A stretch of DNA of 64,000 nt from the sequence record NC_054903.1. One strand, given 5' to 3'. Below, one piece after another: positions 17,146 through 57,865 of this stretch (positions are counted from its first letter, which is position 1; the number at the start of each line of letters is the position of its first letter). The notes beneath the pieces are model-generated. The model saw only the letters and a list, made by a program, of their open reading frames with translations. It searched no databases and was not told the DNA's origin. Source of the stretch: Enterobacteria phage GiZh. Both the position numbers and the translations under genes were made by a program.

Positions 17146-17619
17146 TTATTTGAACGATTTAACGTACTGAATAGAACCTTTACTATTCACAAAGGCAATT
17201 TTACCATTTTTATTATACATGGTAGCAGTACGTTGATAACCATAAGTTTGTTTACCAGATTGATAACCAACTAATGCGAAATTATCTTCGCCCATTTTAT
17301 TCTGTTTAGCGCGAATGCGTTCATGACCATGTGCCATAAGAACCTTAGCATCACCAGTTGCAATGGATCGACGAGTTTTTTCATCTTCAACTGTATTAAC
17401 AAAGTCGTCAAATGAATCAAATTTAGCATGAGATTTATTATACAATTTTCCATCTACTGCATAATTATATCCCTGTACATCCATCTCAACTTCTGTACCA
17501 TCATCCAATACAGCAGTGATTTTTTGACCTTTTTTAAATTTCAAAAGATCAGTAAAAGATTCAGCAATAATTTGAGAATTAATAGCTGCTTCAGTGATAA
17601 ATTCTTGATATGTTTTCAT
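17146..17619 (-). CDS. internal-protein-like capsid-targeted protein, 157 aa (ipII/ipIII position)
   Basis: N-terminus MKTYQEFITEAAINSQIIAE matches the T4 internal-protein capsid-targeting sequence (MKTYQEFIAE...) with Glu cleavage sites. Confidence 0.7.
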   Translation of the reverse strand: MKTYQEFITEAAINSQIIAESFTDLLKFKKGQKITAVLDDGTEVEMDVQGYNYAVDGKLYNKSHAKFDSFDDFVNTVEDEKTRRSIATGDAKVLMAHGHERIRAKQNKMGEDNFALVGYQSGKQTYGYQRTATMYNKNGKIAFVNSKGSIQYVKSFK

Positions 17620-21975: not shown

Positions 21976-22239
21976 TTATTTCATATTATTGAAATATTCT
22001 TCAGCAATTTCATCATTATCATGATAAACTTTAGAAGACAGTTTAACATAACTTTCAGCAGTGAACATGTTAATCACAACCTTTACAGTATACCACTGAC
22101 CATCTTCATTACCCATTACTGCGTAAGTTTCAAACAACGGATGATCAGGACCGATAACTTTAATATCATTCACTGTACGACCGAAATCTTCTGAAACACA
22201 TTTCATAAAGAAGTTGAACAGCTCACCGTAATTATCCAT
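21976..22239 (-). CDS. hypothetical protein, ~87 aa
   Basis: ORF track 21976..22302 (TTG start lying inside the promoter at 22283-22311) trimmed to ATG at 22239 (MDNYGELF) with GGAGA upstream. Confidence 0.55.
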   Translation of the reverse strand: MDNYGELFNFFMKCVSEDFGRTVNDIKVIGPDHPLFETYAVMGNEDGQWYTVKVVINMFTAESYVKLSSKVYHDNDEIAEEYFNNMK

Positions 22240-22282
22240 TTCATTCTCCAAGTTATTTTCTGTATCAGTAGTTGATAGTTGT

Positions 22283-22311
22283 ATAGTACCATGGAAGGAC
22301 AAGGATGTAAA
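22283..22311 (-). promoter_or_regulatory. early promoter (PeSL-type): -35 TTTACA, 17 bp, -10 TACTAT
   Basis: Same 22-mer and upstream A/T tract (ccgttttgtgaaaaaattttt) as the element at 7024; precedes the gene at 21976-22239. Confidence 0.6.
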
Positions 22312-22440
22312 CCGTTTTGTGAAAAAATTTTTAAAAAGTTTTGGGGAATTCTAGGGCAGGGAGGGGAAATCAAAGGATAGGATAATATATTATAAAGGGT
22401 AGAAACTAAATGATGTCTAGAGAGGCCTGGAAAGGCCTAG

Positions 22441-22473
22441 ATACCAAAAAGCCCCAACCTTTCGGCTAGGGCT
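22441..22473 (-). terminator. rho-independent terminator after the IP-like gene at 22481-22954
   Basis: Bipartite stem AGCCC...GGGCT with inner CC-UUUC-GG, followed on the minus strand by UUUUU; near-duplicate of the element at 22996-23028. Confidence 0.65.
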
Positions 22474-22480
22474 AAGAATG

Positions 22481-22954
22481 TTATTTGATTTGTTTAGCAG
22501 ACCAAATGCGGTCTTTAATAATTTTTTGGATGTCTTCAACATATTCAAGAGAGTGAACATGTGGGTTATCTTTGAAACTATAAGCACGAGCTAGCTTTTG
22601 GCCTTCAGTTTTAATTACTAAAAGCTCTTTAAGGATAGCTTCATATTTGGAGATAATTCCTTTAACAATATTTTTCTCTTGTGCGACTTTAGGATCTGCT
22701 TTAGGAGCAGGTTTACCTGAAGCCTTTGCAAAAGCAGCTCCAGTAGCAACTAAACTTTTCCAGGCCATACTAACTGCATTTCCCGTAAATCCTTCCGCTT
22801 TCATATCGCGAGCAAATTGGAATCGTGACTCATCGGAAGCATCTTTATAGGAATATTTACCCGCGGCAATGGCAGCTTTTGCAACAGCTTGAATTTCAGT
22901 GCTAGATGCTTCATTTAACACCGCTTCATTTAAAAATTGAGCATATGATTTCAT
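22481..22954 (-). CDS. internal-protein-like capsid-targeted protein, 157 aa
   Basis: N-terminus MKSYAQFLNEAVLNEAS resembles the internal-protein capsid-targeting sequence; TATAAATA late promoter at 22991-22998 upstream and hairpin terminators on both sides. Confidence 0.65.
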   Translation of the reverse strand: MKSYAQFLNEAVLNEASSTEIQAVAKAAIAAGKYSYKDASDESRFQFARDMKAEGFTGNAVSMAWKSLVATGAAFAKASGKPAPKADPKVAQEKNIVKGIISKYEAILKELLVIKTEGQKLARAYSFKDNPHVHSLEYVEDIQKIIKDRIWSAKQIK

Positions 22955-22990
22955 CTTATTTCCTGTTTTAATTTGTAGATTTAATATACT

Positions 22991-22998
22991 TATTTATA
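22991..22998 (-). promoter_or_regulatory. late promoter TATAAATA (minus strand) upstream of the IP-like gene at 22481-22954
   Basis: Plus strand reads TATTTATA, ~37 nt upstream of the ATG. Confidence 0.55.
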
Positions 22999-23028
22999 CT
23001 AAAAAGCCCCAACCTTTCGGTCGGGGCT
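22996..23028 (-). terminator. rho-independent terminator at the downstream end of the tRNA / stable-RNA cluster
   Basis: Stem AGCCCC...GGGGCT with inner hairpin, followed on the minus strand by UUUUU. Confidence 0.65.
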
Positions 23029-23077
23029 AAGCCTTGCGGCAACCTTGTCGGGGTTCCACCTGCTAAGGCAAGTGTTT

Positions 23078-23340
23078 GTACGAAACGCCGGGATTCGAAC
23101 CCGGTTATTAAGTAGTTGACGCTACTCAATATTTTTAAAAGGCCATATCTCGACCATATCCGAACGTTCCGTCAAAAACGCTACTCGGCTTACGGCAAAG
23201 ATATTTCCTCGAATCGATAATTCGGTGCGCCGTTTCTGCTGTGATGTAAGGGGGCATTAACCGATCGTAAAGATTTGTTAATGCCAGTCCTTACCCAGGG
23301 AACATCAGTCCGACGACTTACCGGTAGCGACCCGGTTTCT
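23078..23340 (-). ncRNA. putative structured stable RNA(s) downstream of tRNA-Arg (resembling T4 species 1 / species 2 RNAs)
   Basis: No ORF; tRNA-like T-arm CCGGG-ATTCGAA-CCCGG at 23088-23104; perfect 9-bp helix GGCATTAAC/GTTAATGCC (23254-23262 with 23277-23285); region ends at the hairpin terminator 22996-23028. Boundaries approximate. Confidence 0.35.
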
Positions 23341-23344
23341 TGTT

Positions 23345-23420
23345 TGGTCGAGGCAGTAGGGATCGAACCTACGACCTAGGACTTAGAAGGTCCTTGCTCT
23401 TCCTTCTGAGCTATGCCTCG
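23345..23420 (-). tRNA. tRNA-Arg (anticodon UCU)
   Basis: Acceptor CGAGGCA/TGCCTCG, anticodon stem-loop AGGAC-CTTCTAA-GTCCT, T-arm GTAGG-TTCGATC-CCTAC, CCA encoded. Confidence 0.82.
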
Positions 23421-23424
23421 GATT

Positions 23425-23499
23425 TGGCGGACGTGATAGGATTCGAACCTATAACCAATCGCTTAACAGGCGATCGCTCTGCCATTGAGCTACACATCC
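23425..23499 (-). tRNA. tRNA-Asn (anticodon GUU)
   Basis: Sequence GGATGTGTAGCTCAATGGCAGAGCGATCGCCTGTTAAGCGATTGGTTATAGGTTCGAATCCTATCACGTCCGCCA. Confidence 0.82.
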
Positions 23500-23503
23500 A
23501 AAT

Positions 23504-23849: not shown

Positions 23850-23851
23850 AG

Positions 23852-23925
23852 TCTCCATACAAGGATTTGAACCTTGGACCTCCTGATCCCAAATCAGGCG
23901 CTCTACCAAACTGAGCTACACGGAG
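23852..23925 (-). tRNA. tRNA-Pro (anticodon UGG)
   Basis: Sequence CTCCGTGTAGCTCAGTTTGGTAGAGCGCCTGATTTGGGATCAGGAGGTCCAAGGTTCAAATCCTTGTATGGAG; CCA not encoded. Confidence 0.88.
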
Positions 23926-24272: not shown

Positions 24273-24560
24273 TTACCATTTATGATAATACATATTTACG
24301 ATGCATTCAAGACCCAAAGGATTCTTGAAAATATCATATTCAAGAGGACCTTTTTCTGTTTCAATAAAGAAATCAAAATTTACTGTATTAAATTTACGGT
24401 CTTCCTTTACTAATTTAACTTGTGAAGATGAACGGTCAATGTAAACCTTTTCAACTTCAAAATATGTTAAAATGCCATAATCATCAATCAAGGCTTTAGC
24501 CGCGTCTTGATCATATTTATATCCATTTTCAATGGACGATACTTTCGCATAAAGAATCAT
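24273..24560 (-). CDS. hypothetical protein, ~95 aa
   Basis: ORF track 24273..24566 (TTG) trimmed to ATG at 24560 with GAAGGT upstream. Confidence 0.55.
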   Translation of the reverse strand: MILYAKVSSIENGYKYDQDAAKALIDDYGILTYFEVEKVYIDRSSSQVKLVKEDRKFNTVNFDFFIETEKGPLEYDIFKNPLGLECIVNMYYHKW

Positions 24561-25130: not shown

Positions 25131-25158
25131 TTTATTCTCCTCGGTAGTTGATAGGGTA

Positions 25159-25187
25159 ATAGTATCACTACCCTATCTAAAAGTAAA
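25159..25187 (-). promoter_or_regulatory. early promoter (PeSL-type): -35 TTTACT, 17 bp, -10 TACTAT
   Basis: Inverted repeat GATAGGG / CCCTATC; precedes the small membrane-protein gene at 24945-25130. Confidence 0.6.
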
Positions 25188-25188
25188 C

Positions 25189-25422
25189 TTATTTTTTACG
25201 AAAAATTGATTTATTTTCTGCTGCCCATTTTTCAATAACTGCAGCAGGACCAGTAACAACAATTTTATCACCGTAATCTTCTGCGGCGAGTTGACCGAAA
25301 TTATCTAATGCATCACGAAGAACTCCATGAGGCATTTCACCCATTTTATCTTTCTTGCCGGTGTAAATAAACTCAACTTTTACATCAGAAGATTCAGCGA
25401 TAAACTCTTTGAAAGTTTTCAT
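25189..25422 (-). CDS. internal-protein-like capsid-targeted protein, ~77 aa (ipI locus)
   Basis: ORF track 25189..25488 trimmed to ATG at 25422 giving MKTFKEFIAESS..., a capsid-targeting-type N-terminus; the table start lies upstream of the promoter at 25457-25485. Confidence 0.6.
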   Translation of the reverse strand: MKTFKEFIAESSDVKVEFIYTGKKDKMGEMPHGVLRDALDNFGQLAAEDYGDKIVVTGPAAVIEKWAAENKSIFRKK

Positions 25423-25456
25423 TTTGATTTCCATTTGGTTTTGTTTTGATAGAGTA

Positions 25457-25485
25457 ATAGTATCACTACTAAAACCCTGTGTAAA
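25457..25485 (-). promoter_or_regulatory. early promoter (PeSL-type): -35 TTTACA, 17 bp, -10 TACTAT
   Basis: Near-identical copy of the element at 25787-25815, including the upstream tract caactttgtgaaattattttaaatc; precedes the IP-like gene at 25189-25422. Confidence 0.6.
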
Positions 25486-25498
25486 CAACTTTGTGAAA

Positions 25499-25756
25499 TT
25501 ATTTTAAATCTTCTAATCGTTTCTTCATCTTAGAACCATTTTTAGCAATTTCTCCTGCATCTGAGCATAATGCTAAAAGCGCTTTAACTTTAGTTTGGTC
25601 TCCTTTAAAAGATGAAGGATCGACTGCAGCAGCAAGTTCTTTAATACGAGAGAAAAGACGCTCAGCTTCAGCTAAAGCCATTCCAAGCTTTACTTCCATA
25701 CCGTGGGAAGATTCGGTGATAGTAGTTTTTGTAGCAAACTCTTTGAAAGTTTTCAT
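25499..25756 (-). CDS. internal-protein-like capsid-targeted protein, 85 aa (ipI locus)
   Basis: N-terminus MKTFKEFATKTTITESS; flanked by near-identical promoter cassettes at 25457-25485 and 25787-25815. Confidence 0.65.
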   Translation of the reverse strand: MKTFKEFATKTTITESSHGMEVKLGMALAEAERLFSRIKELAAAVDPSSFKGDQTKVKALLALCSDAGEIAKNGSKMKKRLEDLK

Positions 25757-25786
25757 TTTATTTTCCTAATTAATTTTGATGAGATA

Positions 25787-25815
25787 ATAGTATCACTACC
25801 TCATCAACGTGTAAA
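25787..25815 (-). promoter_or_regulatory. early promoter (PeSL-type): -35 TTTACA, 17 bp, -10 TACTAT
   Basis: Inverted repeat GATGAG / CTCATC; precedes the IP-like gene at 25499-25756. Confidence 0.6.
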
Positions 25816-25828
25816 CAACTTTGTGAAA

Positions 25829-26525
<697 letters not shown>

Positions 26526-38462: not shown

Positions 38463-38489
38463 GGGAGCCCATGGGCTCCCCTTTTCTTT
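38463..38489 (+). terminator. rho-independent terminator after gene 8
   Basis: Stem GGGAGCCC-(AT)-GGGCTCCC followed by CTTTTCTTT. Confidence 0.8.
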
Positions 38490-38496
38490 ATAAATA
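38489..38496 (+). promoter_or_regulatory. late promoter TATAAATA for gene 9
   Basis: Exact octamer right after the gene 8 terminator. Confidence 0.6.
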
Positions 38497-57809: not shown

Positions 57810-57824
57810 TCTTTGACGATTTAA

Positions 57825-57853
57825 GGGACCTTCGGGTCCCTTTAGTTGTTTTT
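57825..57853 (+). terminator. rho-independent terminator after gene 23
   Basis: Stem GGGACC-(TTCG)-GGTCCC followed by TTTAGTTGTTTTT. Confidence 0.8.
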
Positions 57854-57857
57854 ATGG

Positions 57858-57865
57858 TATAAATA
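57858..57865 (+). promoter_or_regulatory. late promoter TATAAATA for gene 24
   Basis: Exact octamer between the gene 23 terminator and the gene 24 ATG. Confidence 0.6.

Follow-up and report, generated by a model that had tools for sequence, protein, structure and literature searches.

In phages RB49 and phi1, a stem-loop joined to an early promoter, the element named PeSL, flanks ORFans, marks insertions and deletions (indels), and forms mini-circles (Arbiol et al. 2010, PMC2839356). The idea was later extended to early promoters of phages T4 and PST and to a version with a middle promoter, PmSL (Comeau et al. 2014, PMC4122927). Here we describe an arrangement of this type with a late promoter in a 64,000-nucleotide stretch of Enterobacteria phage GiZh (NC_054903.1; hereafter the window), which is from a Tequatrovirus, a T4-like phage. 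A gene for a 157-residue protein resembling phage internal proteins (IPs), hereafter gene A, lies between two copies of a terminator-like hairpin and behind the late promoter motif TATAAATA, in a slot between the stable-RNA gene rnaC and the gene e.8. The slot, which extends from the end of the tRNA–rnaD–rnaC transcription unit to e.8, probably holds a polymorphic array of terminator-delimited late accessory genes, which would be insulated, packaged and recombined as units.

The GiZh cassette and the PeSL and PmSL elements have in common a stem-loop terminator immediately upstream of a promoter, a Shine–Dalgarno sequence and a start codon. In each case, the arrangement is repeated between small non-essential open reading frames (ORFs), which are transcriptionally insulated or, in the slot, predicted to be so, and the elements are located at breakpoints of indels, replacements and re-orderings that distinguish close relatives. 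The promoters of PeSL and PmSL are sigma-70-like early or Mot-dependent middle ones, whereas that of the cassette is the late TATAAATA. Likewise, the stem-loops described for T-even phages are weaker and AT-rich, whereas the cassette is delimited by a putative strong terminator with a 10-bp GC-rich stem and a GAAA tetraloop. The word "late" is absent from the text of PMC4122927, and the term "late promoter" from that of PMC2839356. The cassette is best filed as a late-promoter, strong-terminator analogue of the published PeSL cassettes and not as a new kind of system.

Two polymorphic IP loci of T-even phages were reportedly recognized by Repoila et al. in 1994. The repeats flanking those loci are described as early-promoter based, with weak AT-rich stem-loops (PMC2839356), and papers up to 2025 refer to "the two Ip loci in T-even phages", which are the ipI position and the ipII/ipIII position (PMC12373910). 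The proteins Ip1–3 each inhibit one GmrSD-type Type IV restriction enzyme (Silas et al. 2025, PMC12373910). The genes of the polymorphic IP loci resemble those of the slot in that they are non-essential, vary in number and identity, have nothing in common but the N-terminal capsid-targeting leader, lie between repeated regulatory elements, and have been proposed to determine host range or anti-restriction. The difference is that the two published positions carry early-promoter repeats, whereas the slot lies between rnaC and e.8 and has a late promoter. Gene A shares with T4 Ip1, Ip2 and Ip3 the leader, the small size, the predicted late expression and the polymorphism among Tequatroviruses, but no similarity of sequence or fold past the leader.

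Duplicated hairpins, late promoter and states of the slot

A repeat search of positions 22000–23500 of the window identified a single family of direct repeats, the two copies of which are 36 nt long, 555 bp apart, and identical at 32 of 36 positions (89%). Copy A (22996–23031, minus strand), with a stem-loop at 23005–23028 and a T-run at 23001–23005, is the putative intrinsic terminator of the tRNA–rnaD–rnaC unit, and copy B (22441–22476, minus strand), with a stem-loop at 22450–22473, is the putative terminator of the cassette itself. Both copies were called as minus-strand terminator-like sites with a 10-bp stem, a GAAA loop and a T-run, and both are predicted to be Rho-independent terminators, with a GC-rich stem-loop and a U-run at the end of a transcription unit. 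The calculated RNA folding energies are -24.9 kcal/mol for copy A and -18.5 kcal/mol for copy B, the stem of which is held together by G–U wobble pairs. An initial annotation of the window had described near-identical hairpins of about 30 nt on either side of the gene, and the similarity proved to be slightly longer. In a comparison set beforehand, it also exceeded the generic features of a GC-rich stem and a U-run, since copy B matches copy A at 32 of 36 positions, whereas the 13 other terminator-like hairpins of the window match it at no more than 16. The identity of the two copies beyond the stem includes the loop, a 5' TTAG and a 3' GTAT. The 20-mer core AAAAAGCCCCAACCTTTCGG has exactly two occurrences in the 64-kb window, even when up to three mismatches are allowed, compared with 0.01 expected by chance, and none of 100 shuffled sequences contained it two or more times. 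Alignment of 25 distinct hairpin variants from related phages showed 88.8% of stem cells to be paired, compared with 29–69% in slid controls, and one position has undergone a compensatory change from C–G to G–C. In about half of these variants, the two central pairs are replaced by a small internal loop.

The T4-type late promoter TATAAATA (22991–22998, minus strand) is located 2 nt past the T-run of copy A and 36 nt ahead of the ATG of gene A. The motif occurs at 21 sites in the window, compared with 9.2 expected. The promoter is followed by a 36-nt 5' leader (22955–22990, minus strand), in which a Shine–Dalgarno sequence, AGGAAA, can be read at 22959–22964, and then by gene A (22481–22954, minus strand). 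In other phages, the 5' leader is swapped for non-homologous leader types. The minus strand from hairpin A to the ATG (23028 to 22954) contains no match to a sigma-70-like promoter, and the late TATAAATA is the only promoter motif there. The flanking terminators and the lack of a sigma-70-like promoter therefore suggest that transcription of gene A is confined to the late promoter. The same succession of terminator, late promoter, gene and terminator was marked independently in the annotation of phage fPS-90, where the promoter is labelled "predicted late promoter" and the genes "Phage protein". The positions of the gene and of the late promoter given in the initial annotation were confirmed, and so was its idea of a self-contained cassette with a late promoter, a Shine–Dalgarno sequence, an ORF and its own terminator, except that the upstream hairpin is part of the tRNA/rnaC operon and only the downstream one belongs to the cassette. 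A pattern scan of IMG/VR for the hairpin 3' half followed by the T-run and TATAAATA found this composite at the rnaC–e.8 slot only. Terminator-like hairpins of unrelated sequence are followed by TATAAATA after 8–15 nt at 38463–38496 and 57823–57865 (both plus strand) in the late-gene region of the window, and the terminator-then-late-promoter composite is thus a recurrent layout in this genome.

In phage T4, rnaC and e.8 have no gene between them. The T4 sequence is colinear with the window through rnaC and one hairpin copy, and then continues with GGTATCTAAGCCTTTCC..., which is the window sequence after copy B. The flank GGTATCTA.. follows the single T4 hairpin and copy B of the window alike. 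Therefore, the difference between the window and T4 is exactly one 555-bp repeat-bounded unit.

We mapped the interval from rnaC to e.8 in IMG/VR contigs and GenBank phages, individual sequences of which are designated here by L and a number; a survey of IMG/VR anchored on e.8 provided only 10 loci. The slot is empty in T4 and T2, contains gene A only in the window, RB27 and L035, contains gene B only in Shfl2, and contains A followed by B in L013, L019, PhAPEC2 and fPS-90. Gene B is a 187-residue ORF that is unrelated to gene A, begins with MKTYAEFLTE, and has the late-type promoter AATAAATA and a different terminator. Other phages carry divergent A alleles of 153–154 residues, genes for a 126-residue and a related 205-residue IP-like protein, or a 184-residue membrane-like gene behind TATAAATA. 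All junctions in the Tequatrovirus states are located directly after GGG(C/A)TTTTT, and nearly all those across the related phages are at the T-run of a hairpin. In a second lineage (L046–L049), a variant hairpin, GGCCCTTCC-GAAA-GGTTGGGCC, marks the boundaries too. There, the 184-residue gene (181 of 184 residues identical) is the first in L046 and L048 and the second in L047 and L049, and it always ends in the hairpin. The promoter–leader module GTATAAATAGATAAGTTAATTAACACAGGAAACAATAATG is located ahead of the 205-residue ORF in one phage, and another phage has it ahead of gene A. The hairpin/promoter composite is repeated between the units of L013, L046 and L047, the two flanking hairpin copies are identical over 30 nt in several phages, and at least five unrelated ORFs begin directly past the rnaC hairpin in different phages.

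The frequencies of the states were estimated with 100-nt junction probes against 50,697 phage records. The junction from the hairpin to A was found in about 376 records, that from A to B in about 109, that from rnaC to B in up to 59, and the empty junction in roughly 60–100. These counts are approximate: owing to the hairpin duplication, a probe reaches about 80% coverage even on the wrong state, and BLAST links matches on both sides of the 555-bp unit. Of the GenBank phage records, 510 have a detectable gene A and 165 a detectable gene B. The presence of cassette genes thus varies among close relatives, as gene A is missing from T4 and T2 and present in about 510 records. The initial annotation regarded the flanking elements as short homology that would let the cassette move by recombination. 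The single-hairpin empty site of T4, the indel of one repeat unit, the occurrence of all four combinations of A and B across T-even genomes, and the junctions at T-runs agree with that view as far as gain and loss at the rnaC–e.8 slot are concerned. The agreement does not extend to movement between loci, and some endpoints of exchange and deletion are in coding sequence.

Gene A and its predicted product

The product of gene A begins with MKSYAQFLNEAVLNEAS, and its residues 1–10 (22925–22954) form a putative capsid-targeting leader, MKSYAQFLNE, whereas IPII and IPIII of T4 begin with MKTYQEFIAEA. The first ten residues of T4 IPIII suffice for packaging, with residues 4 and 7 controlling targeting and residues 8 and 10 processing, and the gp21 protease cleaves after L/I-X-E (PMC9026906). 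The leader of gene A has Y4, F7, L8 and E10 and thus retains all four functionally critical IPIII positions, of which Y4 and F7 are identical to IPII and IPIII. It differs from IPII and IPIII in having S instead of T at position 3 and Q instead of E at position 6. Two L-N-E motifs, L8-N9-E10 and L13-N14-E15, are predicted protease sites. The designation "IP-like" in the initial annotation is upheld by these features. A six-frame search of the window for the leader-type pattern gave four matches, gene A and the ORFs 17146–17619, 25189–25422 and 25499–25756, which are at canonical IP positions. Other ORFs of the slot carry an IP leader as well, namely MKTYAEFLTE, MKTYNEFLNE and MYTVNEFLAE. The two protease sites of gene A stem from a tandem LNEAV/LNEAS duplication in residues 1–15 (22910–22954, minus strand). 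Other alleles have a single site (FLTEQSS, FLMTEAS), and a doubled form, FLNESVLNEA, occurs in the 205-residue protein of L046.

Beyond the leader, gene A has no sequence relation to T4 Ip1–3, and a Pfam search gave only noise. Gene A falls in PHROG 2280, which has no assigned function there, and a search of protein databases returned 14 relatives, all of them unnamed or hypothetical proteins of T4-like phages. The AlphaFold model of the product, which has a moderate pLDDT of 73, contains a small helical N-domain, a disordered linker rich in proline and lysine, and a C-terminal helical hairpin. Foldseek found nothing similar to the model in the PDB (best E 0.45), and in BFVD only the protein's own uncharacterised family. 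The Jiaodavirus homologue from Klebsiella phage phiKp_22 (L037, 2495–3028) has the N-domain in common with gene A (51.6% identity over 95 residues), and its C-terminal half is unrelated. Gene A and the 205-residue slot protein are weakly similar over their full length (28.6% over 161 residues). These comparisons suggest shuffling of domains among the slot proteins. A literature search for named ip7–ip10 genes gave nothing relevant. The gene A product is probably an internal protein that is packaged into the head and injected. We infer its packaging, processing, injection and anti-defence role from its leader and late promoter, with Ip1–3 as precedent.

Genomic setting and the canonical internal-protein loci

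The 1.8 kb around the cassette are 99.9% identical to Escherichia phage JLBYU24 and 95–98% identical to hundreds of other T-even-type phages. All genes of the region are on the minus strand, and the order of transcription is the tRNA cluster, rnaD, rnaC, hairpin A, TATAAATA, the leader, gene A, hairpin B, a spacer, the e.8 promoter and e.8. The ten tRNA genes extend from 24175 down to 23345. Directly downstream of tRNA-Arg lies the homologue of rnaD, species 2 stable RNA (23224–23343), onto which the T4 annotation was mapped by alignment (105 of 119 positions identical). It is followed by the homologue of rnaC, species 1 stable RNA (23079–23217), which is identical to T4 rnaC at 138 of 139 positions and closes the tRNA/stable-RNA transcription unit. 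Neither rnaC nor rnaD is represented by an Rfam family, and the Rfam matches in the region were tRNAs only. The initial annotation had placed the cassette next to the tRNA cluster, but the immediate upstream neighbours are rnaC and rnaD (23079–23343), and the tRNA genes lie past them. On the other side of the cassette, a second small hairpin (22424–22440, minus strand; sense strand GGCCTTTCCAGGCC) is part of a conserved right flank that is also present in T4, behind its one terminator. The slot is bounded on the right by the early-type promoter of e.8, TTTACA-17-TACTAT (22283–22311, minus strand), which is kept in T4 and in all mapped Tequatrovirus loci. The e.8 homologue (21976–22239, minus strand), of 87 residues from the ATG at 22239, is the conserved right-hand neighbour.

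The coding sequence JLBYU24_140, a 53-residue ORF with a TTG start that corresponds to 22968–23129 of the window (minus strand), overlaps the 3' region of rnaC, terminator A and the late promoter, and almost certainly results from misannotation. In Shfl2 and OE5505, spurious coding sequences of this kind cover rnaC and rnaD. Where the window has tRNA-Pro (23851–23925), JLBYU24 has a 651-nt seg-type homing-endonuclease gene (L001, 4957–5607). About 527 nt upstream of the JLBYU24 tRNA cluster (L001, 5957–6484) are missing from the window (at 24281–24301), and the seg-type gene of T4 and fPS-90 is at yet another position inside the cluster. Because the content and position of seg-type genes differ among the window, JLBYU24, T4 and fPS-90, the tRNA cluster adjoining the slot is a hotspot of homing endonucleases.

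The position of gene A is outside the ipI and ipII/ipIII loci, which hold other genes with a capsid-targeting sequence (CTS) in the window (25189–25756 and 17146–17619, respectively). At the ipI position, two minus-strand IP genes (25189–25422 and 25499–25756) are each preceded by a repeat of about 71 nt, copies of which are located at 25146–25216, 25444–25514 and 25774–25844. The repeat contains the early-type promoter GTTTACA...GATACTAT, in which a stem-loop is embedded. These repeats are of the early-promoter, IP-flanking type described in the literature, unlike the terminator and late-promoter boundaries of gene A. The gene at the ipII/ipIII position (17146–17619, minus strand) encodes 157 residues, MKTYQEFITEAAINS..., with weak similarity to T4 IPII (27.6% over 98 residues), and neither TATAAATA nor an obvious terminator is adjacent to it. 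The rnaC–e.8 slot is probably a third IP locus, which is empty in T4, and it may have been mentioned in the older literature.

Origin of the slot polymorphism and its meaning

A mechanism for the array can be proposed. Each unit consists of TATAAATA abutting the preceding T-run, a leader with a ribosome-binding site, an ORF with a putative capsid-targeting leader, and a copy of the rnaC terminator. The two terminators would insulate gene A from upstream early and middle transcription and from downstream early transcription, and its protein would be made only late, during prohead assembly. Synthesis at that stage is an established requirement for proteins targeted to the core. The leader would carry the protein into the prohead core and would be cut off by the gp21 protease behind L-N-E. 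The mature protein would then enter the host together with the injected DNA and, by analogy with Ip1–3, may neutralise a host defence. The composites of hairpin, T-run and late promoter would offer 30–70 nt of homology to the T4 recombination system, which reportedly needs less than 50 bp (PMC2839356). Recombination between neighbouring copies would delete a unit, possibly with release of a circle, and recombination between copies in co-infecting genomes would insert or replace a unit and leave the regulation of its neighbours undisturbed. Such reshuffling has been proposed, and partly demonstrated, for the early-promoter PeSL cassettes.

Integron gene cassettes are similar to the units of the slot in being single genes that each end in an imperfect palindrome and vary in content and order at one fixed site. 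They differ in that each unit of the slot has its own promoter and the palindromes are putative transcription terminators. From nudE to the genes at the ipI position, no gene encodes an integrase or another recombinase, and an integron-type array was rejected, as there is no adjacent site-specific recombinase and no attI/attC system. General homologous recombination is the simplest explanation of the exchange. A transposon or insertion sequence with target-site duplication was rejected too, since the only ORF is that of the 157-residue IP-like protein, and there is neither a transposase nor inverted repeats at the ends of the unit.

Signs of exchange were sought by sliding-window identity between the window and RB27 and between L013 and PhAPEC2. 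Identity is about 100% through rnaC to hairpin A and then drops at once to 50–70%, non-coding leader included. In 164 of 165 records, among them that of the Mosigvirus PhAPEC2, gene B reaches an identity of 95% or more, whereas gene A of PhAPEC2 is only about 76% identical to that of the window, and gene A identity across Tequatrovirus and Mosigvirus is 74–76%. The near-identity of gene B despite the divergence of gene A argues for recent lateral exchange of the gene B part of the slot.

Several observations weigh against the exchange of units at the hairpins. Identity returns to about 100% only near the 3' end of gene A, which places the right edge of the divergent block inside gene A and not at hairpin B, and the block of high identity between PhAPEC2 and Tequatrovirus extends from inside gene A to inside e.8, with both endpoints in coding DNA. 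The endpoint of a deletion in L056 (IMG/VR 2706795356) is inside an ORF and not at the hairpins. In this contig, which is missing e.8, an apparent remnant of the last codons of the 205-residue gene (AQFEKT..) with a terminator follows the 184-residue gene, about 650–700 nt downstream of the rnaC anchor. The hairpin of gene B differs from the others and has only GGG(C/A)TTTTT, about 9 nt, in common with them, so the gene B indel cannot rest on 30-nt homology. Gene A was found at no other locus in the phage records, with one place per record in the three genera Tequatrovirus, Mosigvirus and Jiaodavirus; its position is the same in all three, and its divergence roughly tracks taxonomy, so that long vertical residence with occasional loss fits as well as mobility. 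The Klebsiella phage (Jiaodavirus) has the same layout of a hairpin, TTTTTAGTATAAATA and an IP-like gene, but its flanking hairpins are unrelated to each other. Furthermore, the 20-nt hairpin core is present in unrelated phages. It was found in about 20 unrelated phage contigs of about 38 kb. An unrelated phage group (L003, L004, L007–L011, L016, L017, L025–L028, L031, L033, L034 and L036; IMG/VR contigs, mostly of 14–42 kb) carries an identical core (..CCGAAAGGTTGGGGCTTTTT) in a conserved context of its own, and single copies occur in several further unrelated contigs. Part of the similarity between copies A and B may thus reflect a generally favoured design of GAAA-tetraloop terminators. As for function, neither the fold of gene A nor any family match points to an activity, and a literature search for virion proteomics of a cassette-bearing phage returned none.

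The fixed position of gene A, its single place per record, the taxonomy-like divergence, the endpoints in gene A and e.8, and the long homology offered by the nearly 100% conserved rnaC could all be accommodated if the cassettes were ancestral and had only been lost. The terminator repeats would then be merely deletion-prone, as in T4 and T2, the content would have spread by homologous recombination in the rnaC and e.8 flanks, and the hairpins would never have served as points of insertion or shuffling. We consider this account rather unlikely, because the occurrence of the 184-residue gene in position 1 or 2 and of identical promoter–leader modules before different ORFs requires rearrangement and not just loss, and at least five unrelated ORFs directly follow the rnaC hairpin. 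Breaks made by a nuclease offer another route: cruciform-forming hairpins or a SegB-type homing endonuclease of the tRNA cluster would induce gene conversion that moves the cassettes, and the breakpoints would reflect cleavage and co-conversion tracts instead of simple homology. This would explain why the gene B junctions, with only about 9 nt in common (GGGCTTTTT), are nevertheless at the T-run, and it is in line with the polymorphic seg-type genes of the adjacent cluster, with the preferential inheritance of the T4 tRNA region driven by SegB that is cited in the literature, and with the targeted pathway on GGGG...CCCC stem-loops raised by Arbiol et al. (PMC2839356). It is nonetheless very unlikely, as the slot itself contains no nuclease gene and the small homology requirement reported for T4 recombination (PMC2839356) suffices to explain most junctions.

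The likeness of the hairpins would have no bearing on recombination if it had arisen by functional convergence on favoured GAAA-tetraloop terminators. The 20-mer in the unrelated 38-kb contigs and several other unrelated contexts points in that direction, as do the terminator-then-late-promoter layouts with other hairpins elsewhere in the window. Convergence is largely refuted and highly improbable, however, since the 32 matching positions include flanks outside the stem and the 13 other hairpins reach at most 16, the empty site of T4 has a single copy, with an indel the length of one repeat period, and the copies are identical over 30 nt in several phages. A separate question is whether gene A encodes an internal protein at all, or a late cytoplasmic or structural accessory whose Ip-like N-terminus is a by-product of recombined 5' ends and does not lead to packaging. 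The substitutions at positions 3 and 6, the location outside the two loci named in the literature and the result of the proteomics search would suit such an accessory. It is an improbable interpretation, because all four targeting and processing residues and two L-x-E sites are kept, the only other ORFs of the window with the leader pattern are three genes at canonical IP positions, the predicted late-only expression fits a prohead component, and other slot ORFs share the leader type.

The array of late accessory genes that recombine as units thus remains our preferred explanation of the slot. We speculate, with little confidence, that the slot is a third, undescribed IP locus forming an integron-like anti-defence array, that recombination is actively directed to the composite, for example by cleavage of cruciforms or by the excision and re-insertion of mini-circles, instead of relying on passive homology alone, and that gene A is an inhibitor of a specific defence, for example a GmrSD-type variant. 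The weight of the finding would rise if the product of gene A turned out to block a defined host defence after injection, or if recombination proved to be actively directed to the hairpins.

Injected internal proteins stand at the forefront of the contest between T4-like phages and their hosts. The slot is empty in T4 and hence invisible in the model phage, yet it is filled in most sequenced relatives, and it adds gene A, gene B and the genes for the 205-residue and 126-residue proteins to the candidate anti-defence genes. The concept of a regulatory cassette as a recombination linker, so far applied to early and middle promoters, is widened to include a late promoter combined with a strong terminator. 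The slot is also a natural, probably transcriptionally insulated landing pad, which may be used for late-expressed, capsid-delivered cargo in T4-like therapeutic phages.

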